NCBI GenBank assembly: GCA_964473365.1
Contig: CAYYOV010000002.1
Span: 97,576-161,575, forward strand
DNA: 64,000 nucleotides
DNA from: an uncultured Ignavibacteriaceae bacterium
Lineage (GTDB): Bacteria; Bacteroidota; Ignavibacteria; UBA10030
Direction: 5' to 3'
In this document: in pieces, positions 13,429-62,264 of the stretch
Layout: every line of letters begins with the position of its first letter
Numbering within the stretch: position 1 is the first letter of the stretch
Notes under the pieces: model-generated
Told to the model about the DNA's origin: nothing
The model's input: the letters and a program-made list of their open reading frames with translations, nothing else
Databases searched by the model: none
Translations under genes and position numbers: made by a program

Positions 13429-13437
13429 GATTGGCCT

Positions 13438-14040: not shown

Positions 14041-14112
14041 GAAGAACCTCGCCTAGGGCCGTTCAGGATGGTCGATCGTGATCACGTAATCCGGGACTTT
14101 GCCAGACAGACA

Positions 14113-15187: not shown

Positions 15188-15248
15188 CTACCGACTTAGT
15201 GGAGAAGAGACGGCTCGTACGAACAATACCTAAGACTCCAGAGTCCGC

Positions 15249-16556: not shown

Positions 16557-16598
16557 CTCCGCGGACGAACCACCCGGCCGCAGTCAGACGGTGGCCGG

Positions 16599-18290
16599 AT
16601 GCCGCACATCGTTACCCCGCCGCTGACAGGCAGGCGGGTTGCTCCAGCGATCCACCACGTCGGAGACACCGGACCCCGTATGACTATCCAAAAAGGTGAT
16701 GGAAAGACCGCCGTCTCGCTGTTCGTCGACGGTCTGTCGCTGAAGTTCATTCAGCTCTCCTTGAAGGGTGGGAAGGTCGTTCTGCGCGATTTCAAGACCG
16801 TCGCGCTCGTGAAGAAGTTCGAGGAGAAGGAGCTCGCCGCCGAGAACGAGGAGTCGGGGGGGTTCGGCGAGACTCCCGCGCCTGGCGACGCCTTTGGAGG
16901 CGGCGCGGCAACACTCGATGGGGGACAAGAAGAGGAGGCGAACTCCAATTCTACTGTCCTCTTGGGTCTGCTATCCGATCTTGGGGCGAGATTTTCGCTC
17001 AACTATGCGCTCTCCGAGCCTGCAGTCACCTACCAGGAATTCGAATCGGACTTTGGCCTGAAGGGGACGGCGCTCCGCAAGCGGATCATCGAAGAACTGG
17101 CAACGTCTCGTGCCACACCGCCGGTGATGGACTCATTCGCGGTGATCCCACACGCCAACGGCGGGATCCTGACGGTGATCCGCGAGGACGGGCTGAACCT
17201 GTACGACCTGCTGACCGAGATCAAGAGTTTCCTCGGCAACCGGGCACCGAACCTGGAGTACATCGACAGCGCTGACGTGGCCCTCATTGAGATGATCCGG
17301 ACGGGCTACGAGGTCCAGGACGAAGAGGTGACGGTCGTTGTGTACGTCGGCCACGATTTCAGCCGCATCATCTTCATGCAGGGCAAGGAATATCTCCACT
17401 TCGCCCCGATCATCAGCGAAGGGCACGAATCGCCGAATCTGGAGAACACGCTCTACTCGCGCATCCTGCTCGAACAGGACAATATCGCCCTCGCCCGGAT
17501 GGACCGCATTATCCTGGCGGGTGAGGCGCACAAGGTGAACCTGCTCGAATCTTTGGCTCCGCAATTCTCCTCCGCACAGGTCGAGTACGCGCATATCCCC
17601 GACGTCGACCTGACACCGTTCGACGGATCGGTGGGCGAGGCGCTGTCGGAATATGCCATTCCGATCATGAATGCCTGGAAGGCGCTGGAGCCCAAGCGGA
17701 AGACCTTCTATTCTACGAACCTGATCCCGGGCGCGATCATCGAGGCCCAGAAGGTCTTCAAGCTGGCCTGGCACGGCTGGGTTACGGCGCTGGGCATCAT
17801 CGCGGCGATCGTTTTCTTTTACAATGCGATCCTCGAGCAGAGCGTCGATATTCGCCGGGCGAAAGAAGAACTCGCGCAGAAGCAGCTTCGCCTGGCCGAC
17901 CTCGACCTGTTCAGGTCCCGAAAGGACGTGCTCCAAGGCGATATCAACCGGTACATCAACGCGACGACGACGTACGACTCGATCGCGCCAGGCGGTGACC
18001 GCTGGAGCCGGATCCTCCACTATGTCGCAACGAGCGTCGAGGATCTGAACTCCATGTGGATCTACAATATGCGGCCCGATCCACAGAACAAATCGATCAT
18101 CATCCTCTCCGGTCGCTCGATCTACCGAACGCGGATTCCGCGCATCGCCAGCATCTTCGAGAAGGCCACACTGCGCGAGGTGCGGACGACAACGGTCCGG
18201 AACAAGATCGTGTATGAATTCGACATCGTCATCGAGCGGGTCGACAAACATGATATTCCCGAGCGGCCGTACGACGCCGCCCGGCGATAA
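16599..18290 (+). CDS. Apparent PilM-PilN fusion (actin-like cytoplasmic domain + TM helix + periplasmic coiled-coil domain)
   Basis: 563 aa. PilM-like strings: VSLFVDGLSLKFIQL, VVVYVGHDFSRIIFMQG, RIILAGEAHKVNLLESL. A single TM helix follows (WVTALGIIAAIVFFYNAIL, ~17769..17835), then a coiled-coil/PilN-like tail. An alternative start at ATG 16680 would give a more typical PilM N-terminus. Confidence 0.6.
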   Translation: MPHIVTPPLTGRRVAPAIHHVGDTGPRMTIQKGDGKTAVSLFVDGLSLKFIQLSLKGGKVVLRDFKTVALVKKFEEKELAAENEESGGFGETPAPGDAFGGGAATLDGGQEEEANSNSTVLLGLLSDLGARFSLNYALSEPAVTYQEFESDFGLKGTALRKRIIEELATSRATPPVMDSFAVIPHANGGILTVIREDGLNLYDLLTEIKSFLGNRAPNLEYIDSADVALIEMIRTGYEVQDEEVTVVVYVGHDFSRIIFMQGKEYLHFAPIISEGHESPNLENTLYSRILLEQDNIALARMDRIILAGEAHKVNLLESLAPQFSSAQVEYAHIPDVDLTPFDGSVGEALSEYAIPIMNAWKALEPKRKTFYSTNLIPGAIIEAQKVFKLAWHGWVTALGIIAAIVFFYNAILEQSVDIRRAKEELAQKQLRLADLDLFRSRKDVLQGDINRYINATTTYDSIAPGGDRWSRILHYVATSVEDLNSMWIYNMRPDPQNKSIIILSGRSIYRTRIPRIASIFEKATLREVRTTTVRNKIVYEFDIVIERVDKHDIPERPYDAARR

Positions 18291-18307
18291 CCAACTGCGG
18301 AGGCCTC

Positions 18308-19204
18308 GTGACCTATAAGATCCGCAATACGATCGCACTTGCCGTGGTCCTGCTGCTCTTCAGCGGTGGCGGTGCTTTCTGGTACTACTACTGGCAGCCG
18401 CGCGAGCTGAAAGCGCTCGTCAAGCAGATCCAGGCGATCGACAAGGAGCTCGACAATCTTCCGATCCTGACGGAAGAGGTCCAGCGGCTGACGGTACAAT
18501 TCCAGGACGTGAAGCGCCGGTACGATTCCCGGAGCAAAGAGATCCCCGAGTTCGACGTCTCCTCACAAACTTACGGCTATATGAGCCGGGGCATCGACGT
18601 TGCCGGGTTCCTGAAGTTTGATATGAAGTTTCTCGGAACGCAGGAAAGCCCCGGTTACGGATTCAACGCCTACAGGCTCGAGCAAGGGGAGGCCCAGTTC
18701 GACAACCTGTACCGCTTCGTCTACTTCCTGGAGAACGGCCGGCGGCTCTACAAGATCTCGACGCTCGCGCTTGAGTACAAGGATGCGGTCGATTCTGAGA
18801 CGAAGGAAACGAAGAAATGGATCGCATTCGACATGGAGCTCCATGCGTACTACGTGCGGGGCATTCCGGAGCTCGGTTCGTCGCTTGCGGCCCGCAGTTT
18901 GACCGTGGTACCGGCGCCATTTGACCCGTTCGATCCGCTCATCGTGCCGACGATCGCGGCGGAGGCGCCAATGGGCGAACTGAACCCGCGCAACGTCGAG
19001 ATCAAGGCGGTCCTGCCGGGCAAAGCATTTGTGTTGTATGAGAACGAGCTTATCGTCCTGCAGCTCGGCGATCGCGTATGGCGCGGCGCCGTCAGCGCGA
19101 TCGACCCGCGGACCAGCTCGGTGGAATTCACGCTCAACGAAGGTGGCGTGATCACGAAGGTGTCCAAGCAGATCCAATTTGACCGTCGAAGGAGGCTCCG
19201 GTGA
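18308..19204 (+). CDS. Apparent PilO-PilP fusion
   Basis: 298 aa. An N-terminal TM helix (IALAVVLLLFSGGGAFWYYYW), a coiled coil and an alpha/beta region are PilO-like. The C-terminus has a PFDPFDP motif and a beta-domain string (VEIKAVLPGKAFVLYENELIVLQLGDRVWRGAVSAIDP) that is PilP-like. Its stop overlaps the secretin GTG start (GTGA). Confidence 0.5.
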   Translation: MTYKIRNTIALAVVLLLFSGGGAFWYYYWQPRELKALVKQIQAIDKELDNLPILTEEVQRLTVQFQDVKRRYDSRSKEIPEFDVSSQTYGYMSRGIDVAGFLKFDMKFLGTQESPGYGFNAYRLEQGEAQFDNLYRFVYFLENGRRLYKISTLALEYKDAVDSETKETKKWIAFDMELHAYYVRGIPELGSSLAARSLTVVPAPFDPFDPLIVPTIAAEAPMGELNPRNVEIKAVLPGKAFVLYENELIVLQLGDRVWRGAVSAIDPRTSSVEFTLNEGGVITKVSKQIQFDRRRRLR

Positions 19205-20514
19205 ACCTCAAACGTGGAATGACCCTGTTGCTCATCGCCGTGCTGATGTCGGTGTCGGCGTTGGCCCAAACCGAGTCCCAGCTGCGACGCGCAGCCCAAG
19301 GGAAATCGGGAGCGGCTCCCGACGAGATCGTCTCGTTCCGTGCGGATGTACCGTATTCGCAGGCGATCAAATCGCTCGGAGATCTCTGGAAGACAAAGGG
19401 CGGGAAGATCGTCATCGACCGGTCGGGCACCAAAGAAGGGGACAAATCGATCGGCGTGAATATCGAGGCGATGTACTGGAAGGACGCCTTCGAGCTCATC
19501 CTGCGCTCGAACAAGCTCTGGTACAACCAGTATGAAGAGCACGTCGAAGTGGTTCCGATGGAGGAGGCCGGCAGGTCGGCCCAGGTTGACACGAAGACAG
19601 TCGAGCAGGCCAAGACGGGAGGCGCTCCTGTGACGACCCCCACAGCGAGCCAGATGCCGATGAACGAACTTCCGATGAAGGTCGACTCGGCCGAGTACTA
19701 CTTCAAGGATCGAGAGATCACGATCTCCAGCGTGTTCTTCGAGGTAGACCGGACAAAGCTGGCTCAGACCGGCATCGGCTTTTCCATCTTCCGGGGCAAA
19801 GGTCTCAACCTCGGCGTCGAGTTCAGCGGAGCGGACCGGATCACGACACCGATCCTCAATGCGACGGTCAGTCCGCGCGACAAGCGGCTGGCGGTGGACG
19901 TCGATGCGGCCCTACGCGTCTTCGAAAGCGAGCAGCTCGGCGAAGTGATCGCTCGTCCCCAGATCACGGTACGGAACGGCACATCGTCGAAGCTTCAGAG
20001 TGGCCAGAATTTTTCGGTGCAGTTGCGCGATTTTTCGGGCAACGTCGTCAACCAGTTCTACGAGACGGGCACGATCCTGACGGTCACGCCCAAGGTCTGG
20101 AAATTCCAAGAGAAGGAATTCATCAGCCTTAACTACAAGATCGAACGCAGCACGCTCCTCCCGTCAGCGACCACCATCCTGATCAACAAGACGGAGGCGA
20201 GCGGGACTCTCATGCTGCTGGACGGGGAAGAGGCGTACGTCGGTGGCCTGTACTCGACCGACGAATCGGTTACGCGCGAAGGTGTGCCGGTGCTCAAGGA
20301 CCTGCCGTGGTGGGTGCTCGGTCTGCGTTACTTGTTCGGCTTCGATGCAACCAGCTACAAGAAGAAGGAGCTCGTCGTCCTCATGCGCGCGCAGATGGTG
20401 CCGCTGCTCGAGGACCGGCTCAAGGCGGCCCCGGTGCAGCAGGGGTTGGACAACGTCCTGAAGGACATGAACCAGGACCTCCAGAAGCGGACGACACAAA
20501 AGAAGGTCCAGTAG
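19201..20514 (+). CDS. pilQ: Secretin (PilQ/GspD family), short form
   Basis: 437 aa. Signal peptide MNLKRGMTLLLIAVLMSVSALAQ. Secretin core strings ARPQITVRNGTSSKLQSGQNF, GTILTVTPKV and VPVLKDLPWWVLGLRYLFG. Only short N-terminal domains precede the secretin core. Confidence 0.8.
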   Translation: MNLKRGMTLLLIAVLMSVSALAQTESQLRRAAQGKSGAAPDEIVSFRADVPYSQAIKSLGDLWKTKGGKIVIDRSGTKEGDKSIGVNIEAMYWKDAFELILRSNKLWYNQYEEHVEVVPMEEAGRSAQVDTKTVEQAKTGGAPVTTPTASQMPMNELPMKVDSAEYYFKDREITISSVFFEVDRTKLAQTGIGFSIFRGKGLNLGVEFSGADRITTPILNATVSPRDKRLAVDVDAALRVFESEQLGEVIARPQITVRNGTSSKLQSGQNFSVQLRDFSGNVVNQFYETGTILTVTPKVWKFQEKEFISLNYKIERSTLLPSATTILINKTEASGTLMLLDGEEAYVGGLYSTDESVTREGVPVLKDLPWWVLGLRYLFGFDATSYKKKELVVLMRAQMVPLLEDRLKAAPVQQGLDNVLKDMNQDLQKRTTQKKVQ

Positions 20515-20689: not shown

Positions 20690-23600
20690 ATGACGTACGG
20701 TCAAGCGATTACGCGCCTGCTTACGGCTTCGCTGTTGTTGGTGATGGCGTGCCAGAACCCGGAGGAAGAAGGCCCGGGCGGAGGGACCACGGTCTCGACG
20801 ATCCTCAGCGGAAGGGTCCTCAGAAGCGACAACGGCACGGCCGTCCCAGGGGCCTACGTGCGGGACATCTCGAATGCGAGCAAGGTCGACACGACCGACG
20901 CGAACGGGACGTTTGCGCTGAGCTACGACCTGGCCGCGGGCCAGTCGTACGCGACCACCATCTATGCCACACGCACGCCCGGTTTTGGCAACGATTCGGC
21001 GTCGGTGACGTTGCAGTCAGGGACCAATCAGTCCGTCGACCTCATCCTCGTGGCCGACAGCACGAGCCCTCCGACCAATCCCGGGCAAACGTCCGGCCAG
21101 CCGGCCAGCGTCGTGCTCGTGGGGACAGAGGCAACGACCATTTCTATCCGCGGGACCGGATATAACGAATCATCCCTCCTCACGTTCGAAGTACGCGACT
21201 CGCTCGGGAATGCGATCCTCGGCGCGAATGGACCAAACGTGAAATTCGCGATCGTGGGTGGGCCGAATGGAGGCGAATATGTCTATCCGACGGTGGCACA
21301 GGTGGTCGCGGGGACAGGTCGGATCTCCACGCGGCTGAATGCGGGCACCAAGCCCGGTGTCATCCAGATCCAGGCGAGCACGCGGAACGATTCCGTCCTC
21401 TCTGCCCCTGCGCGTGTGACGATCGCGAGTGGTCTCCCGTATGGACCCAATGCTTCTATCGGACGCAGCAAGGCAAACGTAGCAGGTGGGTTGTTCGACA
21501 ACGAACGCGTTCGTATCACGGTCTTCCTGGGTGACCGATACCAGAACCCGGTCCCGCCAGGTACAGCCGTTTACTTCACGACCACGGGCGGCATCATTCA
21601 GCCGACTGCGTTCACGGACCAAGATGGCCAGGCGAGCGTCGATCTGATCACGGCCAATCCACGGCCGGCAGGGGGCGTCGCCATCATCACGGCCCGAACC
21701 ATTGGTGATACGGCTGCCCGTAAAGCAGATAGCCTCATCCAATTGCAGACGCAGGTAGTGTTCTCGGGCGCGACTATCATCACGGCTCCGACGGCAGCGT
21801 TCGGCGTTCCTGACAGCGGTTCGTACAGCTTCGCGTATTCCGTGCTCGACGCCAACGGCAACCCGTTGGTCGCCGGGACGACCATCCTCGTCACGCTCGA
21901 CGGCCCGGGGGCCGCAGACCTGGAGGCGCAGGGCGATGTTGATGTGACGATGAAGGATTCTCCGAATCCGGCAGACGGGAACTTCAACGTGAAGATCGTC
22001 GACAAGACCCGAGGTGGGACCGGAGGGTTCTTCGCGGTCAATATTAAGGTCAAGGGTCAGAATGGCGAGGCCTTCCACACCTTCAATGGATTGGCCCTGA
22101 CGACCGGTGGCGGTGGTGGATCCGTTTCTTCAACGAGCACCCCTCGTAGCATCGCACTGAGCTCGATCAGTTCTCGTACGTTGTCGGTCAAAGGGACCGG
22201 TGCGGGTGAAACAGCGCGCCTGACGTTCATCGTTCGGGATTCGCTCGGCAATCCGGTCGGCAACCCGTTGGATCCCTCCGTGAAGTCGTTCGTAACTTTC
22301 TCGATCAATCCATCGAGCGGTCTGGGCGGAGCGTTCGTGTACCCGTCGGGCGATTCGACGGACGTCAATGGACAAGTTGGAGTGAACTTCAATTCAGGTA
22401 CGCAGGCCGGTGTCGTGCAGGTCGTGGCAAGCACCGTGACCGCCGCTGGAACGATTACGGCTTCACCGGTGCAAATCACGATCCAGGGTGGTCTGCCTGA
22501 TTCGAACAGGTTCGTCGTAACGCTGGACCAGACGAACATGCCGGGCCTCGTCAAGACGGGTACGCTGGGCCAGGTGGCCGTCCAAGCGGCCGACGAATTC
22601 GGCAATGCCGTGCAACCCGGTACGGCGATCTACTTCACGACCAACATCGGCCTCATCAAGGCGTCCTCGGTTACGAATGAATCGGGCGTCGCGACCGCCC
22701 CGCTGAGCGGAGGCGTCGTTGGTGCTTCGACCGGACAGGGGACGGTTACTGTTCAGACGCTTGGTAAGAGTGGAGAAACTGTCCAGAAACAGCTGCCGTT
22801 CTTGTTCACGGGCGCTCCGGTCATTTCAAATGTCCCTGCGAGCGGCTTCAGCATTCCGGACAGCGGATTCTACAGCTTCTCGTTCACCGTGGCCGATGCG
22901 AACGGCAATCCGCTTTCAAAGGGTGCGACGATCACCGTCACAAAGGACGGAGCCGGATCGTCCGACCTGTCGCTCACGGGCGACGTCAATCGTACGATGA
23001 TCGATACGCGCTCGGTCGCTGCGACGACGTTCAACGTGACGGCGACGGACAAGTCGAATGGCGGGCCATCGGGTCCGGTCACCTTCACGATCAGCGTCTC
23101 CGGCCCCAATGGTGAAGCTACCGCAAGCTTCACGGGCTCGCAGCTTGTCACCGGACAACCCGGTACGGGTGGCTCAGGTTCTGGATTCGCTTCGAGCATC
23201 GAATTCCTCGGTTCACAAGGCAATGTGCGCACGCTGTCTGTGCGAGGCACGGGAGCGAATGAGGCGGTCATCGTCCGCTTTGTAGTCAAGGATTCGCTCG
23301 GGAGCCCTGTCGACCTGAACCATCGTGCGACAGTAACGCTGAGCATCCAGGGAGGTCCGGGAGGAGGGGAGTTCCTCTCGCCGACGCCGACGTCACTCTT
23401 AACGGACGCCAGCGGTCAGGTCTATGCGACATTGAATTCTGGGACGAAAGCCGGCGTGTTGCAGTTGCTGGCAACAGCGATCGTGAACGGCCGGACCATC
23501 ACGTCGGCTCCGATCGCCTTCACGATCTACGGTGGTCTGCCCTATGCGGGCGGTATGACCGTCTGGACGGACGTTTCGAATGTCCCGGGTCTGGTCGTGA

Positions 23601-25306
23601 GTGGCACACCGTTAGCCACAGTCAACGTTCAGTTGGCCGATGCCTACGGAAACCCGGTCCAACCAGGTACATCAATCTACTTCAGCACAACAGGCGGTTT
23701 GATTACGCCCTCGGCCGTGACCGATGCGACGGGTAAAGCGAACGCGACGCTCTTCGGCGGCCTCCCGTACCCTGTGAGTGGGATCGATACCGTCACTGTT
23801 ACGACCGTCGGAGCGAACAACGCGACTGTATCGAAGCAGATTGCGCTGACGTTCTCGGGTGCGCCCGTGTTGACAGTCCTGAATGTGCCGACGGATACGC
23901 TGACGATTCTGGACGGCGGATACTTCGACCTCGATTTCCGCTTGGCCGACGCTGCCGGGAATCCATTGGCGCAGGGCAATTCGGCCTCGGTGACCATCTC
24001 ATCGCTCGGGAACGCTGCAACAAGCGTGACCTTGGCCGGAGATATCACGACGACTACGATCGATACGCGTCTCGCAAGTACAACGTCGCGACGCGTCCGG
24101 TTGACGGATGCGGTAGCCAACGGCGGGAACTATGGTCCGTTCACGATCAGGATACGATCAACCGGACCCAATGGAACGGCAGAGAAGGTGCTGGGTGGCA
24201 TTCTGGGAGCGCCGTCGTCCATCACGCCTCCTTCGGCGACGGTCAAGAACCCGGCGCAGATCGCATTCATCGGTGTCTCCGCTTCGGACGTCTATGTGTC
24301 TGGTGTTGGAGCCCTCGAGAATTCTGTTATCACGTATGAGGTACGCGATTCGCTGGGCAACGCTATCGAAGCCAACCCGCGCGCGTATGTGAATTTCTCC
24401 ATCACCTTCTTCCCGAATACATTTGTACCGGGTGGCACGAGCCCGGTCCTCATTCCAGGTTCTGACAGTACGGATAATGCCGGGCGAGCCCGCGTCTCGA
24501 TGTCGTCAGGGACTCGTGCTGGTGTTGTGCAGATCGTCGCCAGCACGGTCGTGGGCATCAAGACCATCACGTCGCTTCCGGTGAAGATCACGATCCATGC
24601 CGGTTTCCCCGATCAACGGCACTTCACCATGGCACCCGACCGGTACAACTTCCCGGGTCTTGATAAGGCCTTCGTGACACAAAAGGTGACGGTCCAAGTG
24701 GCCGACAAGTATAGCAATCCTGTCCAGGCCGGGACGGCCGTCTATTTCTACAGCACGCATGGTACGATGCAGACCGGCGGAGGATCGCCTGGCCTCACAG
24801 ACCTGAACGGATTCGTCTCGCAGACGCTGTATTCCGCGAATCCGTATCCGGAGGGCGTTGATTCGCTCGCGATCGGCAAAGGGTTCACCTACATCTATTC
24901 ACAGACCCTCGGTGAGTCCGGCGCGCAGGTGATCGATTCGCTCGAGATACTTTGGACCGGTCAGCCTATCATTACCCGGACCTCCGGACCGAGCAGCTTC
25001 ACGATAATCAATGGCGGGAGTGGAGGCCCGTGGACCTTCTCTGTTGTCGATCGGTTCGGTCATCCGATGTCGGGCGGTACATCCATTAGTGTCTCCGCCG
25101 GCGACGGAACCGTGAACGGCGATGCTGATGCCACCATCACTGACACCAAGGTCGGCGGTGCGGGCGTCACAGACTTCACGATTACCGTGGATGATTCGGA
25201 TCCGGCAGATACTGATCCTCCGGCGAATGTGTTGCTGACAGTCGTCGTGACTCATCCGGTCTACGGTACCTACAAGAAAATCATCGCGACGGGTACCATC
25301 GACTAG
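20690..25306 (+). CDS. Giant surface lipoprotein built from bacterial Ig-like (Big_1/invasin-type) domains
   Basis: 1538 aa. Lipoprotein signal MTYGQAITRLLTASLLLVMAC (Cys21 codon 20750..20752). A CarboxypepD_reg-like segment follows (LSGRVLRSDNGTAVPGAYV...TDANGTFAL). Repeated Big_1-type strings are present (e.g. VFLGDRYQNPVPPGTAVYFTTTGG...TDQDGQASV). No T9SS-type C-terminal sorting domain is recognisable. Confidence 0.75.
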   Translation: MTYGQAITRLLTASLLLVMACQNPEEEGPGGGTTVSTILSGRVLRSDNGTAVPGAYVRDISNASKVDTTDANGTFALSYDLAAGQSYATTIYATRTPGFGNDSASVTLQSGTNQSVDLILVADSTSPPTNPGQTSGQPASVVLVGTEATTISIRGTGYNESSLLTFEVRDSLGNAILGANGPNVKFAIVGGPNGGEYVYPTVAQVVAGTGRISTRLNAGTKPGVIQIQASTRNDSVLSAPARVTIASGLPYGPNASIGRSKANVAGGLFDNERVRITVFLGDRYQNPVPPGTAVYFTTTGGIIQPTAFTDQDGQASVDLITANPRPAGGVAIITARTIGDTAARKADSLIQLQTQVVFSGATIITAPTAAFGVPDSGSYSFAYSVLDANGNPLVAGTTILVTLDGPGAADLEAQGDVDVTMKDSPNPADGNFNVKIVDKTRGGTGGFFAVNIKVKGQNGEAFHTFNGLALTTGGGGGSVSSTSTPRSIALSSISSRTLSVKGTGAGETARLTFIVRDSLGNPVGNPLDPSVKSFVTFSINPSSGLGGAFVYPSGDSTDVNGQVGVNFNSGTQAGVVQVVASTVTAAGTITASPVQITIQGGLPDSNRFVVTLDQTNMPGLVKTGTLGQVAVQAADEFGNAVQPGTAIYFTTNIGLIKASSVTNESGVATAPLSGGVVGASTGQGTVTVQTLGKSGETVQKQLPFLFTGAPVISNVPASGFSIPDSGFYSFSFTVADANGNPLSKGATITVTKDGAGSSDLSLTGDVNRTMIDTRSVAATTFNVTATDKSNGGPSGPVTFTISVSGPNGEATASFTGSQLVTGQPGTGGSGSGFASSIEFLGSQGNVRTLSVRGTGANEAVIVRFVVKDSLGSPVDLNHRATVTLSIQGGPGGGEFLSPTPTSLLTDASGQVYATLNSGTKAGVLQLLATAIVNGRTITSAPIAFTIYGGLPYAGGMTVWTDVSNVPGLVVSGTPLATVNVQLADAYGNPVQPGTSIYFSTTGGLITPSAVTDATGKANATLFGGLPYPVSGIDTVTVTTVGANNATVSKQIALTFSGAPVLTVLNVPTDTLTILDGGYFDLDFRLADAAGNPLAQGNSASVTISSLGNAATSVTLAGDITTTTIDTRLASTTSRRVRLTDAVANGGNYGPFTIRIRSTGPNGTAEKVLGGILGAPSSITPPSATVKNPAQIAFIGVSASDVYVSGVGALENSVITYEVRDSLGNAIEANPRAYVNFSITFFPNTFVPGGTSPVLIPGSDSTDNAGRARVSMSSGTRAGVVQIVASTVVGIKTITSLPVKITIHAGFPDQRHFTMAPDRYNFPGLDKAFVTQKVTVQVADKYSNPVQAGTAVYFYSTHGTMQTGGGSPGLTDLNGFVSQTLYSANPYPEGVDSLAIGKGFTYIYSQTLGESGAQVIDSLEILWTGQPIITRTSGPSSFTIINGGSGGPWTFSVVDRFGHPMSGGTSISVSAGDGTVNGDADATITDTKVGGAGVTDFTITVDDSDPADTDPPANVLLTVVVTHPVYGTYKKIIATGTID
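21101..25303 (+). repeat. Four tandem, diverged ~1.05-kb (~350-aa) super-repeats inside the giant lipoprotein gene
   Basis: The anchor motif (F/V/I)(E/I/V)V(R/K)DSLG(N/S) occurs at ~21184, ~22225, ~23276 and ~24335, giving periods of ~1041, ~1051 and ~1059 nt. Each unit repeats the same order of three to four Ig-like domains: ...RGTG..E...TF.VRDSLGN; ...NSGT.AGVVQ.VAS; ...D.YGNPVQPGTA.YF.TT.G; ...FSGAP....P...F.I.D.G...F...V.DANGNPL. Confidence 0.7.
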
Positions 25307-53499: not shown

Positions 53500-55662
53500 G
53501 TGCTGTCTGCCATCCGATCCCGTCTTGAGATCAAGGTCCTGCTTCTGATCATCGTCGTGTTGGTGATCGGGTTCGGGACCTATGTCATTCTGTCGATCCA
53601 GCGGGAATCCAGTGCCCTCGTCTCGCAGCAACGCGACCAGCTTCGCATCGCGACGGAAGCCTTGACGGCCGGGATCCGCAATGTCATGCTGACCGGCAAG
53701 TCGCCCTTTGCTGTCGAGTTGGTCAACGATATTCGCAGCAATGTTCGGTTCGTGGATGTCACGATCTACGATCGGTTTGGCCGCGAAGTCTTCCTGCGTG
53801 AAGGGGAAGGGGTCAATCGGGATGTGAATGACCCGATCGTACCCGACGTCCTCCGTTCAGGTCTGCTCCGGACGGCGATGATGCCGACGGACAGCGGAGC
53901 GGTCGCCACATGGTACGCGCCACTGCCGAACCGGCCAGAATGTTGGCGCTGTCATGACACGAAAGACCCTCTGCGAGGGGTCCTTCAGGTTGCGCTTCGG
54001 CCGTCGGTCGCTCAATCGATGGGAGAACGCGCGTCCGTTCGCGATGTGGCTGGAACGCTGACGAACGCGATCGCCATCGCCTTTCGCACGATCATGCTCG
54101 GCGGCCACGGGGACCAGATGGACACGTTGATCGCGGCGGCGGGACAGATCCCCGGTGTCCGGCGGGTCCAGGTCTACGACCGGCTGGGCTCGCTCCACTT
54201 CGGTCCGGAGGCGGAGGAGATCCCGGACACGCAGATCGTGGACATCCTGAAGCCGTTGTCGGCCGCGCACGTTCTTGAGGAACGGTCAGGTCGGGTACGG
54301 GTCTTCGCGCCGTTGGTCAATGAGGATCGGTGCCAGGTCTGCCACGGTGGCAAGTTCCCCATGCGGGGCGTGCTCGTGGTCGACTTCGATCGTCCCGCCT
54401 TGACCCGATGTGCGCGTGATCCCGAAGGTGAATTCACGGCGGCGCTTCAGTCCTCCATCATCGAGGGCTTTCGGAGCATCATGCTGGTCGGCCGGGCGAC
54501 GTCGGCCCGATTCTTCATGGACGAGTTGCGCGACCAGCAGGTGTTGCAGACGCTCCGCGTTTTCGATCGTCACGGTTACGAGCGTTTTCTGAACCCTCCG
54601 CCACGCACGCGTTCGGTCCTCGCACGCGTCATCGAGCAGCGGGACACGCTCGAGTTTCAGGAAGGAACGGGAGCAGACGAGCGCCTCGTTCGCATCGTCC
54701 AGATCCCGAACGAGAATCGATGCTACCCATGCCACGGATCAGCGCACAAGGTCCGGGCGGCCGTCGAGGTCTCGACGTCGATGGCGGCCATCAACGAGCT
54801 CGTGCGGGAGAATCAGATCCGGTCGGCTCTTATTGGGGCTCTGACGATCGTGTTGGTTTGGGGTACGCTGCGCATTTTCATGCGGCGGGTGGTGCTCCGG
54901 CCCGTGCAGGACATCGAACGCGTCGCGTCGCGAGTAGGTGCCGGGGATCTGTCGGTCGAGGCGCACATTCATTCGCTCGACGAGATCGGCACCCTGGCCC
55001 GACGCATCAACGAGATGGTCCAGGGTCTTCGGGAGCGTTTCCACCTTGAGCGATTCGTCTCGCAAGGCACAGTGGATGCAGTCCGGCGCAGCGATCTCGA
55101 CGGCGTTTCGTTGGGGGGAGTGAGAAAGAAGGCGACGGTGTTCTTTTCGGACATCCGGGGTTTCACGGCCTACGCTGAGCGGGTGGAGCCGGAACGGGTC
55201 GTGAGCATGCTCAATGCCATCCTGTCGGCGCAGGCTTCGATCGTCCGGAAATTCGGCGGCGATATCGACAAGTACGTGGGCGACGAATTGGTGGCGGTCT
55301 TTGAGGGGGACGACATGGTTGCTCGAGCCGTCCGTGCCGCCGTCGAGATCCAGGCAAGTGCATCCGGGGCACTCGAGGACGCAGATCGAGAGATCGTTTC
55401 GATCGGGATCGGTGTTCATATGGGTGAACTGATCATGGGAGCGATGGGGAGTGCTGAACGGATGGATTTCACGGTGATCGGCGATACCGTGAATCTTGGT
55501 GCACGGCTCTGCAGCGCCGCAGCGCCGGGACAGACCCTTCTCTCCGACGCGGCCGTCCGTGAGTTGTCTGATCCAGATTGGTGCCGCCTGACGGCCCTCG
55601 AACCGATCATCGTGAAAGGCAAGCGTTCACCGGTCAAGGTGTGGATGGTTGAAGGAGTCTGA
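53500..55662 (+). CDS. Membrane-bound class III adenylate cyclase with a triple CxxCH extracytoplasmic sensor region and HAMP linker
   Basis: 720 aa. TM1 is IKVLLLIIVVLVIGFGTYVILSI. The ~400-aa outside region carries CWRCH (53941..53955), CQVCH (54331..54345) and CYPCH (54721..54735). TM2 is ALIGALTIVLVWGTLRIF, followed by a HAMP-like segment (PVQDIERVASRVGAGDLSVEA...LDEIGTLARRINEMV). The cyclase domain reads ATVFFSDIRGFTAYAE, KYVGDELVAVF, GIGVHMGELIMG and FTVIGDTVNLGARL. The Lys/Asp pair suggests ATP specificity (inference). Confidence 0.8.
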   Translation: MLSAIRSRLEIKVLLLIIVVLVIGFGTYVILSIQRESSALVSQQRDQLRIATEALTAGIRNVMLTGKSPFAVELVNDIRSNVRFVDVTIYDRFGREVFLREGEGVNRDVNDPIVPDVLRSGLLRTAMMPTDSGAVATWYAPLPNRPECWRCHDTKDPLRGVLQVALRPSVAQSMGERASVRDVAGTLTNAIAIAFRTIMLGGHGDQMDTLIAAAGQIPGVRRVQVYDRLGSLHFGPEAEEIPDTQIVDILKPLSAAHVLEERSGRVRVFAPLVNEDRCQVCHGGKFPMRGVLVVDFDRPALTRCARDPEGEFTAALQSSIIEGFRSIMLVGRATSARFFMDELRDQQVLQTLRVFDRHGYERFLNPPPRTRSVLARVIEQRDTLEFQEGTGADERLVRIVQIPNENRCYPCHGSAHKVRAAVEVSTSMAAINELVRENQIRSALIGALTIVLVWGTLRIFMRRVVLRPVQDIERVASRVGAGDLSVEAHIHSLDEIGTLARRINEMVQGLRERFHLERFVSQGTVDAVRRSDLDGVSLGGVRKKATVFFSDIRGFTAYAERVEPERVVSMLNAILSAQASIVRKFGGDIDKYVGDELVAVFEGDDMVARAVRAAVEIQASASGALEDADREIVSIGIGVHMGELIMGAMGSAERMDFTVIGDTVNLGARLCSAAAPGQTLLSDAAVRELSDPDWCRLTALEPIIVKGKRSPVKVWMVEGV

Positions 55663-55770: not shown

Positions 55771-57009
55771 TTGAATCTCCGCCGTCTCTACCGAACCATT
55801 GAGTCGTTTGCATCGGACCGATTCCGGACCGATAAGGAACTCCTGAAGCACGTCCTGAACGAGATCGTCAAGAGCCCCGATATCAAGATCAAGGGCGGGC
55901 GTATATGGGAGTTCGATCCGAAACAAGGATCGTTCAGGCTTGTGCACCAGATCGGCCAGATCGAACGGATCGAGCCGAAGTATCGCATTCCCGTCGACTA
56001 TCCGGCCTTCCAATGGCTGGGCGACCAGCGTTCGATCATCGCGAACGAGACCGACCCGACGCTACGGAGGATCGGGATCGTCAAGTTTGCGGCGACCGGC
56101 GTTGGCGAACGCCTGCCGTCGAAGCACGGCGAGTTTCCGCAATACGTACTGGCATTCAATGCCGATGAGCTCGACCAAAGCCTCCTGGCCGACCTGAATA
56201 TCATCTCGGTCGCGGTCACTTCGTCGCTGCGCGGGCAGAAGATCGAGCAGAAGGCCAAGGCGATGGCGAAGGACATCGACAAGGCCCGCGAGATCCAGCT
56301 CAGCATTCTGCCAGACTCGGCGAAACGCTTCTACCACTACGATATCTACGGCGTGTCCGAGGCGGCGCAGATCGTCGGAGGCGATTTCTTCGACTACGTC
56401 ACGTCGGATGACGATCCGGACCGGCTGTCGATCGTTGTCGGCGATGCAGCGAGCAAGGGTTTCTCCGCAGCTGCACAAGCGCTCTACGTGGTCGGAGCGC
56501 TCCGCATGGGGACGTCGTACCACATGAAGATCAGCGCGGTCATGAGCGGCATCAACCGGTTGCTGAACCGTACGTTCGCCGAAGAGCAGTTTGTGACGAT
56601 GGTCTATGCCGAGCTCACGGACAACGCCAAGGGGCTTCTGCTCTACTCGAACGCCGGTCACAACAGTCCGCTCGTGTATCACGAGGCGGCGGGGACCGTC
56701 GAGGAGCTTGAGCCGACCGGCCAGATCCTCGGTCCGTTCCCCGAGGAGACCTTCCGCGTCGAGAACACTATGGTCGCCCCCGGTGACATGGTCGTGATCT
56801 TTACGGACGGGTTGTCAGAGGCCCGTGATGCCGAGGGGAATTTCTACACTGAGGCCCGGGTCCGCGAGTTTCTCCAAACGAACCATCACCTCACGGCGCG
56901 CGAATTCTGCGACGCGCTCATGCGCGACGTGACGGCATTTGAAGGCTCGGCAGGTAGCTACGACGACAAGACGTTGGTGGTGATCAAGAGGCTGCACGAC
57001 ACGGCATGA
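55771..57009 (+). CDS. GAF-like sensor domain fused to PP2C/SpoIIE-family serine phosphatase
   Basis: 412 aa. The N-terminal ~170 aa are GAF-like. The C-terminal part is SpoIIE/PP2C (AREIQLSILP, VGGDFFDY, VVGDAASKGFSAAA, YSNAGHNSPL, IFTDGLSEA, DDKTLVVIKR). TTG start. Confidence 0.8.
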   Translation: MNLRRLYRTIESFASDRFRTDKELLKHVLNEIVKSPDIKIKGGRIWEFDPKQGSFRLVHQIGQIERIEPKYRIPVDYPAFQWLGDQRSIIANETDPTLRRIGIVKFAATGVGERLPSKHGEFPQYVLAFNADELDQSLLADLNIISVAVTSSLRGQKIEQKAKAMAKDIDKAREIQLSILPDSAKRFYHYDIYGVSEAAQIVGGDFFDYVTSDDDPDRLSIVVGDAASKGFSAAAQALYVVGALRMGTSYHMKISAVMSGINRLLNRTFAEEQFVTMVYAELTDNAKGLLLYSNAGHNSPLVYHEAAGTVEELEPTGQILGPFPEETFRVENTMVAPGDMVVIFTDGLSEARDAEGNFYTEARVREFLQTNHHLTAREFCDALMRDVTAFEGSAGSYDDKTLVVIKRLHDTA

Positions 57010-57125: not shown

Positions 57126-58730
57126 ATGCTCGAGCAAAAATTCATCGGTGTCGTCCAACACGTTTCCACGGGCAATGTCGAGATCCTGATTGACGCCAAC
57201 GTCAAGACGCTCAAGCGGGACCTGAACGGCAAGACATACTTCATCGGCCAGATCGGGATGTATGTCCTGATCCCCATGGGAAGCCTTGTCCTCATCGGCA
57301 TGGTCACCGACTTCCTCAAGGTCGATGTGGTCATCAACGGCCAGTCGCTGCAGCGATATCGCATGACGGCTTCGCTCGTCGGCACGGTGAAGGGTGGCCG
57401 GTACGAACGCGGCATATCAATCTTTCCGGTCGTCGACTCGCCTGTATACTTGGCGGAAGACTCGGACCTCACCGTGGCCTTTTCGGTCTATCAGCGATAT
57501 GGGTTCTCGGTCGGCCAGGTCTCACTGTTCGAGAATCAGCGCGCATACCTCGACGCAAACCGATTCTTCGGAAAGCACATCTCCGTCCTCGGCTCCTCAG
57601 GCTCGGGCAAATCGTGTACGGTGGCGTCGATCCTTCAAAAGGTCACGCAATATCCCGATACGAACATCATCATCCTCGACATCCATAACGAATACAAAAA
57701 GGCGTTCGAAGCGGACTGCAACCACCTGGACATCGCCGAATTCGAACTTCCGTTCTGGCTAATGAACTTCGACGAACTGCGCGAGATGTTCGTCGACGAA
57801 AAGGACGAGAACGCCTCGACGCAGATCACGGTGCTGAAGGACCTTGTCATCGCGTCGAAGAAGGGGAAGAACCCGGAGATGTCGTCACTCATTACGATCG
57901 ATACGCCGGTCTTTTTCGACCTTGCCGAGATCCGGGCAAAGGTCCAGTACATGGACACCGAGAAGATCTCGATCGGAAGCACCTCAAAAGAAGGACCGTT
58001 CTACGGAAAGTTCACGCGGTTCCTTGTGCGCCTCGACGGCAAGCTGAACGACCCGCGGTATGCGTTTATGTTCCGGCCCAAGAAGTATGTCCAGTCGCAA
58101 TCTCTGAACGATCTGTTGGCCGCAATCCTAGGCGCAGACGGGGCGGCCAAGGTGACGATCCTCGACCTGAGCGGAGTACCGTTCGACATCGTGAATACGA
58201 TCGTCTCCCTCCTCGCCAGGACAATCTTCGACTTCAATTTTTGGAATCCCAACCGACGGGAATTCCCGATCCTGCTCGTGTTCGAGGAGGCGCACAACTA
58301 CCTTCCGCAAACTGGGACGAACACCACAGCGGCACGGCGGACCGTCGAGCGCATCGCAAAGGAAGGTCGCAAATACGGCGTCAGTATCATGGTCGTCAGC
58401 CAGCGCCCGGTCGAAGTGTCGGAAACGATCCTCTCGCAGTGCAACAACTACGTCATCCTGCGGCTGACGAACCCGCTCGACCAGAACTATGTCCGTCGTC
58501 TCGTTCCGGACACCTTCGCGAACCTCACCGATGTCCTGCCCTCGCTACGACAGGGCGAGGCGCTCATTGTTGGAGAGGCCATCTCGATGCCGCTCCGTGT
58601 GCAGATCGATTTCCCGAACCCGGAACCCGACTCGGCCGACATCAGATTCTATGACAAGTGGAAACAAAGCGAGGCCAAGACGCGGATCGAGGACGTCGTA
58701 ACGAGGTGGTGGAAGCAGGACAAGGTGTAG
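57126..58730 (+). CDS. HerA-like (FtsK/HerA superfamily, DUF87) ATPase with N-terminal HAS-barrel
   Basis: 534 aa. The barrel reads [17 protein letters not shown]...[26 protein letters not shown]...[26 protein letters not shown]. Walker A is [14 protein letters not shown] and Walker B is [15 protein letters not shown]. Further strings: [16 protein letters not shown] and [14 protein letters not shown]. Confidence 0.8.
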
Positions 58731-58732
58731 GA

Positions 58733-59665
58733 ATGGCCATCCTGAAGTTACCGCCTATTCCTTCTTCAGAGCTCACGCCTGAACCGTTGTACTACTCCCG
58801 TCGGTCCTGGCTATCCATGGTCGGTCTTGGTGGGCTGACAGCTCTGTGGGTTCCTCCGGTGGCCGCACAGGACCGCTGGCCACAGGGGAAGGTCGGTCCG
58901 TTCGATACGGACGAAAAACCGAGCACGTTCCGGGAGATCACGACCTACAACAATTTCTACGAGTTCGGGACGGACAAATCAGACCCTGCCGGCTACTCCG
59001 CCGATTTCAAGCCGAAGCCGTGGACCGTACGCGTCGACGGTCACGTGAAGAAGCCGGCGGACATCAATCTCGAGGAACTGCTCAAGCCCTTTGCGACGGA
59101 GGACCGGATCTACCGAATGCGATGCGTCGAGGGATGGTCGATGGTGATCCCATGGCGCGGCATCCCGCTGGCGAGCATCCTGAAACGAATCGAGCCGACG
59201 TCGAAGGCGAAGTATGTCGCGTTCCAGACCGTGCTGCGTCCCGAAGAGATGCCCGGACAACGGCGCCGCGTCCTCGACTGGCCGTACGTTGAAGGGCTGC
59301 GGCTTGACGAGGCGCTCCACCCGTTGACGTTCATGGCGACCGGACTGTACGGCCGCGATCTGCCGAATCAGAATGGGGCCCCGTTCCGACTGGTGGTGCC
59401 GTGGAAGTATGGTTTCAAGTCGATCAAGTCGATTGTGCGCATCACGCTGACGGCCACCGAACCGCCCACGACCTGGAACCTCTCCGCCCCGAACGAGTAT
59501 GGCTTCTACAGCAACGTCAATCCCGACGTCGACCATCCGCGCTGGAGTCAGAAATCCGAGCGACGCATCGGAGAGTTCGGGAAGCGCAAGACGCTTCCGT
59601 TCAACGGCTACGGAGAGCTCGTGGCAGGATTGTACTCGGGGATGGACCTGAAGAAATTCTACTAA
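58733..59665 (+). CDS. msrP: Protein-methionine-sulfoxide reductase catalytic subunit MsrP (YedY, molybdopterin)
   Basis: Collinear with my recollection of E. coli MsrP: Tat motif [81 protein letters not shown] and [15 protein letters not shown] 58733 lies 2 nt after the herA-like stop. The track ORF starts at 58658. Confidence 0.9.
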
Positions 59666-59765: not shown

Positions 59766-60374
59766 GTGAAGCACGTCACCAAAGCCTTTGCTTTTTGCGT
59801 CGGCCTTCTGCCGTTTGTGGTCCTCGTCTACCGTTTCGCAACGGACCAGCTCTCCGTCAATCCACTGGACGACCTGACCGATGAGACGGGAACATGGACG
59901 CTCCGGTTCGTTCTGATCACGCTCGCGATAACTCCTTTGCGCGATCTCACCGGTTGGAGCTCGGTCGCCCGCTTTCGTCGTATGGCGGGATTGTATGCAT
60001 TCTTCTACGGTTCGCTCCATTTCTTCACCTATCTATACTTTGACAAGTTCTTCGAGTGGGCGGAGATCGTTCCTGACCTCACGACCCGGAGATTTGTGGT
60101 CGCAGGGTTTTCCGCGTGGCTTCTCATGCTCCCGCTGGCGATCACATCGCCTACCTTCATGACCCGATGGATGGGGGGCAAGGCATGGAAGCGGCTCCAC
60201 CGGGCGGTGTACGTCGTCGGGATACTGGGTGTCGTACACTACTTGTGGTTGGTCAAGTTCGACATCCAGCGACCGGTCATCTACGGAGCCATCGTGTCCG
60301 TTCTGCTTGGATATCGACTTTGGGCCTTCTGGAGAAAGAAGCGTCGCCAGGAAGCGGCGGTGAGAAGTGTGTAG
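59766..60374 (+). CDS. msrQ: Protein-methionine-sulfoxide reductase haem-binding membrane subunit MsrQ (YedZ)
   Basis: 202 aa with ~6 TM segments. Conserved His-containing helices are present (LYAFFYGSLHFFTY; WKRLHRAVYVVGILGVVHYLW). GTG start. Confidence 0.85.
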   Translation: MKHVTKAFAFCVGLLPFVVLVYRFATDQLSVNPLDDLTDETGTWTLRFVLITLAITPLRDLTGWSSVARFRRMAGLYAFFYGSLHFFTYLYFDKFFEWAEIVPDLTTRRFVVAGFSAWLLMLPLAITSPTFMTRWMGGKAWKRLHRAVYVVGILGVVHYLWLVKFDIQRPVIYGAIVSVLLGYRLWAFWRKKRRQEAAVRSV

Positions 60375-60540: not shown

Positions 60541-61005
60541 ATGAGAACTCTTTTTGCCGTGGCAATACTGGCGCTCGCCGGCTGCTCCACGCTCACGCTC
60601 GCGCCATCCGATTTCGCTTGGCCGGTCATGTCGGAGCTAACTGCCGACAAGAGCGGCACTGTACAAGAGGAACGGTATCACCTGAGCTTCAACGTCAAAC
60701 CTCTCCTGTTCGAAGAGCTGAAGGACTCGATCAACGTCGCCGGAAAGACCTTGAGCATCATCCGGGATCGTCAAGGATTCTATTTTGTGACTGGCCCCAA
60801 GTTCAAGAACGTCTATGTGTTCCAACACACCTCTGAGGGCCTTGGACTGGCCTCCACCATCGCCGTCCATCCGTCCGGGCTCTCCGGTCCTGAATTCGAG
60901 CAACGGCCTCCGCATATCCGGCTTCGCAGCGGACGCGAATCTTGGTTGCTGACACGCACGGGCGTCTACACACCGCCGGCCGCCCCGCAAGGGGGTGCCA
61001 AATGA
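60541..61005 (+). CDS. Hypothetical lipoprotein
   Basis: 154 aa. Lipobox MRTLFAVAILALAGC. No family recognised. The stop overlaps the next ATG (ATGA at 61002..61005). Confidence 0.45.
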   Translation: MRTLFAVAILALAGCSTLTLAPSDFAWPVMSELTADKSGTVQEERYHLSFNVKPLLFEELKDSINVAGKTLSIIRDRQGFYFVTGPKFKNVYVFQHTSEGLGLASTIAVHPSGLSGPEFEQRPPHIRLRSGRESWLLTRTGVYTPPAAPQGGAK

Positions 61006-62264
61006 CGACCCGGATCGGTCTGTCACTCCTGACGACAGTGATGTTCTTGGCGTCCTTGGCGGTTCCCGCTCTCGGACAAGAACGTTCTGACTTCCAGACG
61101 GTCAAAGCCTTCGAGGCAGAGACCAAGGCTATCGCGAAATCGATCGACGAGGTGCAGACCGTGCAGGAATGCGCCGACGTTTCGCTTGCGATCGATCGCA
61201 TCGCAGAGGAGTTCGCCCCGAGCAAAGAACTGCTCGATAAGGCTTTGTATGGCGAGAAGTTTGACGAACGGCTTGCGCGGCTACGGGTACAGCTCAAGCT
61301 AGCGCAGGACAAGCTAGGGATCATCGAATCACAGGTGACCCGGATCGCCGAATTGGAGGAACAGGTCCGCGTTCTCTCCGGAGAAGTTGAGCGTCTCTCG
61401 GGTGAGAACACGAGGCTGATGGGTGACGTGGAGCGGTTGTCGGGCAACATCAAGTCGTTGGGCGAGTCGAATGCCTCCACGGGCGCGCTCGTGGACTCGC
61501 TTCGCAAGGTCATCGGACAATTGCAGAAGGGCATCAAGGAGCGCGACCAGATGATCTTTGCGCTCGTCGATTCTCTGTTCCAGCAGTACGTGAAGCCGGT
61601 CGATCAGCTCGCAGACACCGAGAAGCGCGGTCTAGCCCTTCGCATGGACCGGAACAACATCGTCACGGGCGTCAAATCTTCGATCGAGAACAATCTCCGG
61701 TTCCTCGAACGGGCAGAGTTGAAGGGGGGAGACCTGGCGGCGGTTCTCCAGGAGCATCAGCGGTTCTCGTCACAGTGGAAGGGACTCGGCCCGAAGCTCG
61801 CCTCGATCTACTTGAGCAACAAACAAAAGGCAAAAGAGCTGGCCGCCGTTGACACACTCCTGGCAGCGTGGTCCGCGAAGGCGAACGATGCGTACTGGCG
61901 GGGCGTGAACGCCGCGTTCTCGTCGAAGCAGATCCCCGTCAAGCCGATCGCGTCGGGCAACGATCTCGTATCGAACTTGGCGGCGTACGTCAACGAGCAC
62001 ATGGCCGCGGAGGGCGCGGCAGACGAGAAGGCAAAGGAGTTCCAGAAATTCGACGGCGTGTGGCAGTCGGAGATGGTCAACGGATGGCTGCCGTTGATGG
62101 AAAGCCGTGGTGACTTGTCGGCCGATCAGCGCAAGCTCGTTGAAGCGAAGGTACAGGAGTGGCGCGAATCGTTCGAGGGAACGTCGCCGTTTACGTATGC
62201 ACTGCTGTTCATCGTCATTGTGGCCATCCTGGCGGCACTGTATGTCAGGATGAAGAAGAAGTAG
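61002..62264 (+). CDS. Hypothetical exported coiled-coil protein with C-terminal membrane anchor
   Basis: 420 aa from ATG 61002. Signal peptide MTTRIGLSLLTTVMFLASLAVPALGQ. A long coiled coil includes five heptads xxRLSGE at 61365..61469. The C-terminal TM segment is FTYALLFIVIVAILAALYV followed by RMKKK. The track ORF starts at 60942, inside the previous gene. Confidence 0.5.
   Translation: MTTRIGLSLLTTVMFLASLAVPALGQERSDFQTVKAFEAETKAIAKSIDEVQTVQECADVSLAIDRIAEEFAPSKELLDKALYGEKFDERLARLRVQLKLAQDKLGIIESQVTRIAELEEQVRVLSGEVERLSGENTRLMGDVERLSGNIKSLGESNASTGALVDSLRKVIGQLQKGIKERDQMIFALVDSLFQQYVKPVDQLADTEKRGLALRMDRNNIVTGVKSSIENNLRFLERAELKGGDLAAVLQEHQRFSSQWKGLGPKLASIYLSNKQKAKELAAVDTLLAAWSAKANDAYWRGVNAAFSSKQIPVKPIASGNDLVSNLAAYVNEHMAAEGAADEKAKEFQKFDGVWQSEMVNGWLPLMESRGDLSADQRKLVEAKVQEWRESFEGTSPFTYALLFIVIVAILAALYVRMKKK

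Follow-up and report, generated by a model that had tools for sequence, protein, structure and literature searches.

The stretch of DNA considered in this work (hereafter the window) covers 64,000 nucleotides of contig CAYYOV010000002.1 (positions 97,576 to 161,575 of the forward strand), in the assembly GCA_964473365.1 of an uncultured Ignavibacteriaceae bacterium. At positions 53500..55662 of its plus strand, on which all features of the window described below are located unless otherwise stated, lies a gene with a GTG start that encodes a protein of 720 amino acids (aa). According to the list of open reading frames (ORFs), Pfam and 96 full-length orthologues that share its architecture, this protein is composed of a first transmembrane segment (TM1), three sCache_heme units, a second transmembrane segment (TM2), a HAMP domain and a class III adenylate cyclase domain. 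The domain family to which the units are assigned is already known, as are the chemistry of its haem and its combination with cyclases. What is new, and well supported as real, is the conserved arrangement of this haem-c sensor in three copies.

Two transmembrane segments were predicted from hydropathy. TM1, or signal anchor, corresponds approximately to aa 11-33 (53530..53598), with a Kyte-Doolittle maximum of 3.05, and TM2 to aa 442-462 (54823..54885), inside a helix predicted to extend from residue 429 to 480. Three Lys or Arg residues precede TM1 and five are found within the 19 residues that follow TM2, a charge distribution that supports an N-in topology in which aa 34-441 (~408 aa) are predicted to lie outside the cytoplasm. 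The HAMP domain (aa 460-512, 54877..55035; PF00672, E 2.2e-13, 50.7 bits) comes directly after TM2, and the presence of BamA, Skp and LpxC/D in the window indicates that the host is a diderm bacterium with a periplasm. The order of elements proposed in the original prediction (TM1, outside region, TM2, HAMP-like linker and class III cyclase domain) is thus borne out by hydropathy, by the Lys/Arg bias and by the Pfam matches to HAMP and Guanylate_cyc (aa 544-717).

The outside region is made up of unit 1 (aa 34-176, 53599..54027), unit 2 (aa 177-307, 54028..54420) and unit 3 (aa 308-441, 54421..54822), the last of which runs straight into TM2. Their CxxCH motifs are CWRCH (C148 to H152, nt 53941-53955), CQVCH (C278 to H282, nt 54331-54345) and CYPCH (C408 to H412, nt 54721-54735), separated from each other by exactly 130 codons; the positions and distances reported for them in the original prediction are correct to the base. 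A six-frame translation of the 64 kb of the window contains no other CxxCH, which excludes chance as an explanation for their presence. The exact 390-nt spacing holds for this gene and not as a constant of the family, since the motifs are 128-137 residues apart in the orthologues and 105-146 in more distant relatives, so that the 130/130 pattern is a feature of this lineage rather than a rule. When the three ~130-aa units were aligned with each other, local scores of 81-112 were obtained, as opposed to means of ~27 with shuffled sequences (z = 11-19), and 16 columns are identical across the three, indicating that they are true internal repeats. A search for DNA repeats detected no periodic repeat of 390 nt, which implies that the triplication is ancient.

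In the AlphaFold2 (AF2) model, which has a predicted local distance difference test score (pLDDT) of 81.4 and low confidence in the linker between HAMP and cyclase, the CxxCH motifs are held in helices 146-150, 276-282 and 406-412, with strands on either side of each. A single unbroken helix, from residue 429 to 480, joins unit 3 to TM2 and HAMP. The repeat alignment and the secondary structure of the model indicate that each haem unit forms an entire repeat of the sCache type, including two N-terminal helices of its own. They also correct the boundaries proposed earlier, in which a VTIYDRFGREVF-type motif was taken as the opening of each unit: this motif is rather a beta-strand located ~27 residues past an invariant Met, and that Met is in the first helix of the N-terminal pair.

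The original prediction did not recognise the unit as a member of a named family, and this has to be revised: it is assigned to a haem-c sensor family with solved structures, Pfam PF21563 (Mcp40H-20_sensor), now renamed sCache_heme. The whole protein matched the PF21563 model in three stretches with 88.6 bits, and each unit scanned singly exceeded the curated cutoff of 27 bits (32.0, 30.3 and 38.9 bits for units 1, 2 and 3). By sequence, the periplasmic region matched only two PDB entries, 3B42 and 3B47, which correspond to the PAS-like haem-c sensor domains of two chemoreceptors of Geobacter sulfurreducens (GSU0935 and GSU0582, respectively); unit 1 matched 3B47 and unit 3 matched 3B42 with an E value of 4.5e-8. 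When the full-length AF2 model was compared with PDB using Foldseek, the top 50 matches all corresponded to the cyclase domain, and the assignment of the periplasmic region to a family is thus by sequence. The accompanying guess of a Tll0287/DUF3365-like fold proved right. PF11845 (Tll0287-like) gave a sub-threshold match (21.3 bits, with a cutoff of 24.1), and the PF21563 family and DUF3365/Tll0287 have been reclassified together as sCache_heme in a preprint of February 2026 (Deshpande et al., PMC12889525). That study describes ~20,000 sCache_heme sequences in which CXXCH is conserved in 99% and 99.4% of the cases in two datasets, locates the defining CxxCH in a short helix flanked by beta-strands, within an extracytoplasmic fold of the Cache type, and lists HAMP, MCP, histidine-kinase, GGDEF/EAL and Guanylate_cyc domains as partners. 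Signalling-type members have been found experimentally to be haem-c proteins responsive to nitric oxide (NO) and redox state (PMC12889525; bioRxiv 10.64898/2026.05.25.727664). Two other assignments were tried and rejected: no dCache model matched even at E <= 1, and the multihaem cytochrome c models of the c3/c7 type (Cytochrome_C7 and Cytochrom_c3_2) gave E values of 0.015-0.04, below their cutoffs, covering CxxCH alone in a protein whose motifs are 130 residues apart, and not the few tens of residues typical of the tightly packed haems of such cytochromes.

Conservation was analysed in ~100 orthologues with 44-77% identity and identical Pfam composition, obtained from a collection of 5.8 billion proteins and belonging in all cases to metagenome-assembled genomes of Ignavibacteria or Bacteroidota. 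CxxCH motifs were counted in the 96 full-length orthologues, and residue invariance was determined in an alignment of 69 of full length. Exactly three CxxCH are present in each of the 96 proteins, and the motif is also kept in distant three-unit relatives, so that the lack of conservation that would have spoken against the original prediction was not observed. In GSU0935 the low-spin haem has His144 and Met60 as axial ligands, the Met being bound when the haem is reduced and released on oxidation (PMC8396549). Alignment with 3B42 pairs Met60 with Met328 (nt 54481-54483) and His144 with His412 of unit 3, and the equivalent Met, in the motif R-x-x-M-L-x-G, is found in unit 1 (Met63, nt 53686-53688) and unit 2 (Met199, nt 54094-54096). 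The distance from Met to His is 89, 83 and 84 residues in units 1, 2 and 3, compared with 84 in GSU0935. In the alignment of orthologues, neither the three Met residues nor any of the nine Cys/Cys/His positions vary. Among 11 three-unit modules that are only 23-51% identical, two of them with PP2C output, the invariant columns are essentially these same Met, Cys, Cys and His residues plus an Arg or Gly after each motif. The three units are conserved to a roughly equal degree (0.61, 0.56 and 0.61), which argues that none of them is degenerate and that all three matter in the lineage of the window; the pattern as a whole argues for selection on all three predicted haem sites in this group of orthologues.

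The output domain (aa 544-717, 55129..55650) matched PF00211 with an E value of 2.7e-21 (76.4 bits). Its best sequence match in PDB was Pseudomonas aeruginosa CyaB (3R5G, E 1.4e-26), and Foldseek gave target TM-scores of 0.8-0.94 to CyaB, CyaC, Rv1900c and Ma1120. According to the alignment with CyaB, D551 and D595 correspond to the metal-binding residues, K591 and T658 to those that determine adenine specificity, and N665 and R669 to those involved in the transition state. These six residues are invariant in the orthologues, and while the guanylyl cyclase Cya2 (2W01) has a Glu at the position of Lys591, CyaB shows the same Lys/Thr pair as the window protein. The invariance of the six residues and the presence of Lys instead of Glu lead to the prediction of an active homodimeric adenylate cyclase with an ATP-type Lys/Thr pair. 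Between HAMP and this domain there is a linker of 28 residues (aa 516-543, 55045..55128), presumably a cyclase transducer element, which is among the most conserved segments of the protein (mean majority frequency 0.78), with seven invariant positions that include L516, F519, V520 and S521. The region with the highest identity to distant orthologues (those with ~45% overall identity) is TM1 (79%), compared with 60% in the cyclase domain and 33-40% in the haem units. That TM1 is more conserved than the cyclase domain hints that the membrane helices may take part in signalling.

The spread of the module was explored by means of a hidden Markov model profile of the single unit, with which 1.84 billion representatives (clusters at 50% identity) were searched. 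This yielded 1,376 matches at E <= 1e-3, and the numbers of units and the outputs given here refer to the best 150 of these. The profile was derived from cyclase-linked units, which bears on the output bias observed, and a complementary scan of species genomes was seeded on cyclase motifs and under-samples three-unit proteins with other outputs. Three units were found in 42 proteins, two in 15 and one in 93. Twenty-nine of the three-unit proteins were full-length: 26 have a class III cyclase, two have a HAMP-SpoIIE/PP2C output (P0125, of 763 aa, encoded at locus L087 3361-5652, and P0145, of 828 aa) and in one (P0130, 859 aa) a Ser/Thr protein kinase is N-terminal and the three-unit module C-terminal. 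No histidine kinase or chemoreceptor output appeared among these 29 proteins, identified as said with a profile from cyclase-linked units. Shorter three-unit proteins that end in a membrane anchor and have no output domain also exist (P0146, P0162 and P0170), as do cyclases with one unit (eight) or two (seven). A CX4CH variant, CAAAGCH, occupies the site of unit 1 in P0160.

In the species-genome scan, Ignavibacteria/Bacteroidota had three-unit cyclases, as did Myxococcota (L020, L022, L023; 36-37% identity), while one-unit cyclases were present in Spirochaetota, Leptospira, SAR324 and Desulfobacteraceae. With a three-unit cyclase from Latescibacterota (P0137), the phyla in which the three-haem sensor occurs number at least three (Bacteroidota/Ignavibacteria, Myxococcota and Latescibacterota). 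When units were matched one by one to those of distant three-unit proteins, 14 of 20 comparisons paired unit 1 with unit 1, with mixed results for units 2 and 3, and a single ancient triplication behind all three-unit proteins is plausible from these alignments.

Downstream of the cyclase gene, the window contains, in this order, genes for a SpoIIE/PP2C phosphatase, a DUF87/HerA-like ATPase and a pair resembling MsrP and MsrQ. The phosphatase (55771..57009; PF07228, E 1.2e-43), a candidate pathway partner that shows ~60% identity across Ignavibacteria, has an N-terminal alpha/beta domain of ~135 aa, followed by a long helix (aa 138-179). For this N-terminal domain there was no Pfam match at E <= 10 and no PDB match at E <= 10 with a profile of 12 sequences, and the matches in a fold search of the protein were dominated by its PP2C half; the notion of a GAF domain that binds cAMP was considered and is not put forward here. 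No terminator-like site was found in the 109-nt gap between cyclase and phosphatase genes. The order cyclase, SpoIIE, DUF87 is kept in seven related loci with 55-77% identity (L003, L004, L008, L009, L010, L017 and L019), eight with the window; in the subgroup with 44-48% identity DUF87 is directly upstream of the cyclase and the flanks contain no SpoIIE, and the Myxococcota loci have neither. A functional link between the three-unit haem sensor and PP2C signalling is plausible, because PP2C is fused to the modules in P0125 and P0145 and because single Cache_heme-HAMP receptors have recently been reported to cluster with a PP2C phosphatase and a Ser/Thr kinase. The PP2C domains of these two proteins belong to the same family as the SpoIIE neighbour in the window; orthology was considered and set aside, as an identity of only ~30% gives no evidence for it.

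The DUF87/HerA-like ATPase (57126-58730; L001 6248-7843; L012-L016 and L033) adjoins the three-haem cyclase in both subgroups of orthologues, on opposite sides, which could reflect functional linkage or merely retained synteny. It is followed by an MsrP-like molybdopterin oxidoreductase (58658-59665) and an MsrQ-like membrane protein of the ferric reductase type (59766-60374). As listed, the last 73 nt of the DUF87 ORF are shared with the MsrP-like one, whose real start probably lies more downstream. In the orthologous locus L003, a Cytochrome_P460 gene (15320-15829) is located five genes downstream. Together with the MsrPQ-like pair, it makes up a gene neighbourhood concerned with oxidative and nitrosative chemistry in the periplasm.

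The remainder of the window corresponds to an ordinary diderm chromosome, with genes for a TonB-dependent receptor, ClpB, UppS, BamA, two Skp, LpxD, LpxC-FabZ, SurE, Ddl and MutS, and a cluster resembling type II secretion (T2SS) and type IV pilus (T4P) systems (9110-20511) that includes T2SSF, a T2SSE ATPase and a secretin. Within this cluster there are long ORFs for which no Pfam match was found, such as 16599-18287 and 18308-19201, and after it comes a protein of 1538 aa that matches Pfam Invasin_D3 (20690-25303). A protein of 1462 aa encoded at 3433-7818 combines a BcrAD_BadFG ATPase and DUF2229 in a fusion of the CoA-enzyme activase type. The long ORFs at 60942-62264 and, on the minus strand, at 10309-12372 and 12406-13428 had no significant family match; the minus-strand pair are candidate genes, and the first ORF gave only a sub-threshold coiled-coil match to NRBF2.

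The known systems closest to the sensor part are GSU0935 and GSU0582 (3B42 and 3B47; PF21563), whose domains are likewise periplasmic, lie between two transmembrane helices followed by HAMP and have one CxxCH each; the distal Met60 of GSU0935 also has its counterpart in the window protein, equally far from the His. They differ from the window protein in having one domain per chain, a chemoreceptor output and helix-swapped dimers, instead of three tandem domains and a class III adenylate cyclase. The wider sCache_heme family, including the P. azotoformans Cache_heme-HAMP receptor, shares with it the extracytoplasmic CxxCH Cache fold and the fusion to HAMP and signalling outputs, Guanylate_cyc among them (PMC12889525), and the association of the family with PP2C and Ser/Thr kinases parallels both the SpoIIE neighbour in the window and the relatives fused to PP2C or kinase. 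That preprint, however, describes single (s) Cache modules, without the words 'tandem' or 'copies', whereas the protein analysed here has three. The stand-alone members of the Tll0287 type have Cys/His ligation, while the units in the window keep the Met. Closest in both sensor family and output are the one-unit sCache_heme-HAMP-cyclases (L026, L029, L030, L032, L042 and others), with 33-45% identity in the best segment, which nevertheless have one haem unit in ~480-500 aa and not three in 720.

With respect to the output, the best catalytic matches are the class IIIb membrane cyclases P. aeruginosa CyaB (3R5G) and Spirulina CyaC (1WC0), with the same Lys/Thr pair, two metal Asp and Asn/Arg residues, but with sensor modules unrelated to the haem array; CyaB has a membrane MASE2 module and no periplasmic haem array. 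Soluble guanylate cyclase (sGC), H-NOX and haem-b PAS sensors offer an analogy of function only, in that haem coordination controls a class III cyclase, and sGC chains are among the fold matches of the catalytic domain. The differences lie in their cytoplasmic, non-covalent haem b, H-NOX fold and cGMP product, compared with the three periplasmic covalent haems c in Cache/PAS-like domains, and cAMP, predicted here. Sensors with one additional haem motif have been described (Gsu0591, Gsu0599, Adeh_2011 and Adeh_3383), and public databases label proteins such as the one in the window as cyclases carrying PF21563. No description of the three-module tandem was found in the literature that could be searched.

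Taking all this together, we consider it likely that the product of this gene is a homodimeric inner-membrane receptor adenylate cyclase in which three periplasmic sCache_heme modules per chain couple the state of their haems to cAMP synthesis. The coupling of a triplicated covalent-haem module to a cyclase, as proposed in the original prediction, is supported at the sequence level by the PF21563 match of each unit, the conserved CxxCH motifs, the topology and the intact cyclase residues, with the haem itself being predicted. Each module would carry one covalently attached haem with the His of CxxCH as ligand, and the reduced haem would also be ligated by the conserved Met from the first N-terminal helix of the module, as in GSU0935. 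Oxidation, or displacement of the Met by NO or CO, could then alter haem coordination and shift the N-terminal helices. Given that unit 3 and TM2 form one continuous helix in the model, the change would be transmitted via TM2, HAMP and the conserved linker to the class III catalytic dimer, where cAMP synthesis would be altered. The domain identities, the conserved ligand and catalytic residues, the predicted topology and the spread of the three-unit module are what the analysis shows; we infer the attachment of haem, its His/Met ligation, the kind of signal (redox potential versus NO), the direction of the regulation and any role of the neighbouring PP2C downstream of cAMP. By analogy with characterised proteins, the Met of the Geobacter type favours redox potential as the signal, while the 2026 biochemistry on a signalling-type member favours NO. 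Conversion of the periplasmic redox or NO state into cAMP is the most likely function of the protein.

Some observations weigh against this proposal. The Geobacter domains signal as helix-swapped dimers with one domain per chain, versus the tandem array in the window. Neither cytochrome c maturation genes nor genes for a cAMP receptor or cNMP-binding protein were found among the window ORFs scanned, so that competence for haem c is deduced from the taxonomy and from the Cytochrome_P460 gene at the locus of an orthologue. Finally, in P0141 and P0144 unit 1 has lost both Cys and the His while keeping the Met-helix and fold signature, which indicates that three haems are not strictly required in every lineage.

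The alternative that retains most weight, possible in our opinion although we would not favour it, is that the protein is a selective sensor of NO (or another diatomic gas), which would displace the Met or His at one haem or more and so control cAMP, as a periplasmic haem-c analogue of the NO-regulated soluble guanylate cyclase. A signalling-type sCache_heme receptor binds NO tightly and forms no stable oxy-complex, and its NO-bound form changes the phosphorylation of the partner kinase (2026 preprints PMC12889525 and bioRxiv 10.64898/2026.05.25.727664); GSU0582 and GSU0935 bind NO and CO as well. The Cytochrome_P460 gene near an orthologue and the MsrPQ-like pair, of the kind that repairs oxidative damage, near the window cyclase are also in line with it. 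Nonetheless, the invariant Met in each unit points to a His/Met redox switch of the Geobacter type, no sequence feature marks selectivity for NO, and three sites are not needed for the detection of a gas. It should be borne in mind that this explanation and the one we prefer overlap, as both act through haem coordination.

A rather unlikely alternative is that a single unit does the actual sensing and the other two serve as structural spacers or dimerisation modules, with haems required for folding. The altered unit 1 of P0141 and P0144 and the existence of one- and two-unit cyclases (among the best matches as well as in the Spirochaetota and Leptospira loci) would fit this idea, as would the fact that direct coupling to TM2 is seen in unit 3 only. 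It is at odds, however, with the conservation of Met and CxxCH in all three units, without exception, in the orthologues of the window protein, and with the similar degree of conservation of the units. We find it improbable that the outside region functions as an electron-transfer chain, that is, as a membrane-anchored tri-haem cytochrome that relays or stores electrons and whose cyclase reports electron flux. Redox or electron-transfer roles have been proposed for stand-alone sCache_heme proteins, and the anchor-only three-unit modules mentioned above have no output, but with one haem per domain of ~130 residues the distances between haems are probably too long for efficient transfer, the Pfam c7 and c3 multihaem models are far below threshold, all 29 full-length three-unit representatives have a signalling output, and the HAMP and cyclase residues are intact. 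Lastly, that the CxxCH motifs hold no haem and are metal or disulfide sites, or the result of chance, in an ordinary ligand-binding Cache array could be argued from the lack of maturation genes among the ORFs scanned, but is very hard to reconcile with their 99% conservation in a family with members in which haem c has been demonstrated experimentally (PMC12889525), with their being the only ones in the six frames of the window and with their 100% retention, along with the distal Met, in the orthologues.

Beyond the receptor cyclase that we propose, a broader and speculative extension, which we put forward as doubtful, is that the three-unit module constitutes a distinct and evolutionarily mobile 'triple Cache' cassette, with six haems per dimer. 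Graded midpoint potentials or cooperative ligand switching would allow it to read redox or NO state at several levels and to feed this information, via cAMP or via the PP2C or Ser/Thr kinase of the sister proteins, into partner-switching or phospho-signalling, apparently never in combination with histidine kinases or chemoreceptors; the co-transcribed PP2C in the window would then be the cAMP-responsive next step.

Extracytoplasmic haem-c sensors have been recognised only lately as a large family, and the characterised examples have one haem domain that feeds chemotaxis, or belong to a HAMP-only receptor paired with a kinase. The arrangement described here does not overturn the current understanding of these proteins but extends a family that was described in 2006-2008 and renamed in 2026. 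If the proposed function is true, the window encodes an adenylate cyclase regulated by haem through a sensor that faces outwards, which would be, by analogy, a bacterial counterpart of the NO-regulated guanylate cyclase and, for synthetic biology, a candidate cAMP switch under redox control. A conserved three-haem sensor, wired almost exclusively to cAMP, also offers a system in which to ask how the periplasmic redox or NO state is measured, and why several haems are used for it, i.e. whether they serve to extend the range, to provide cooperativity or to integrate signals.

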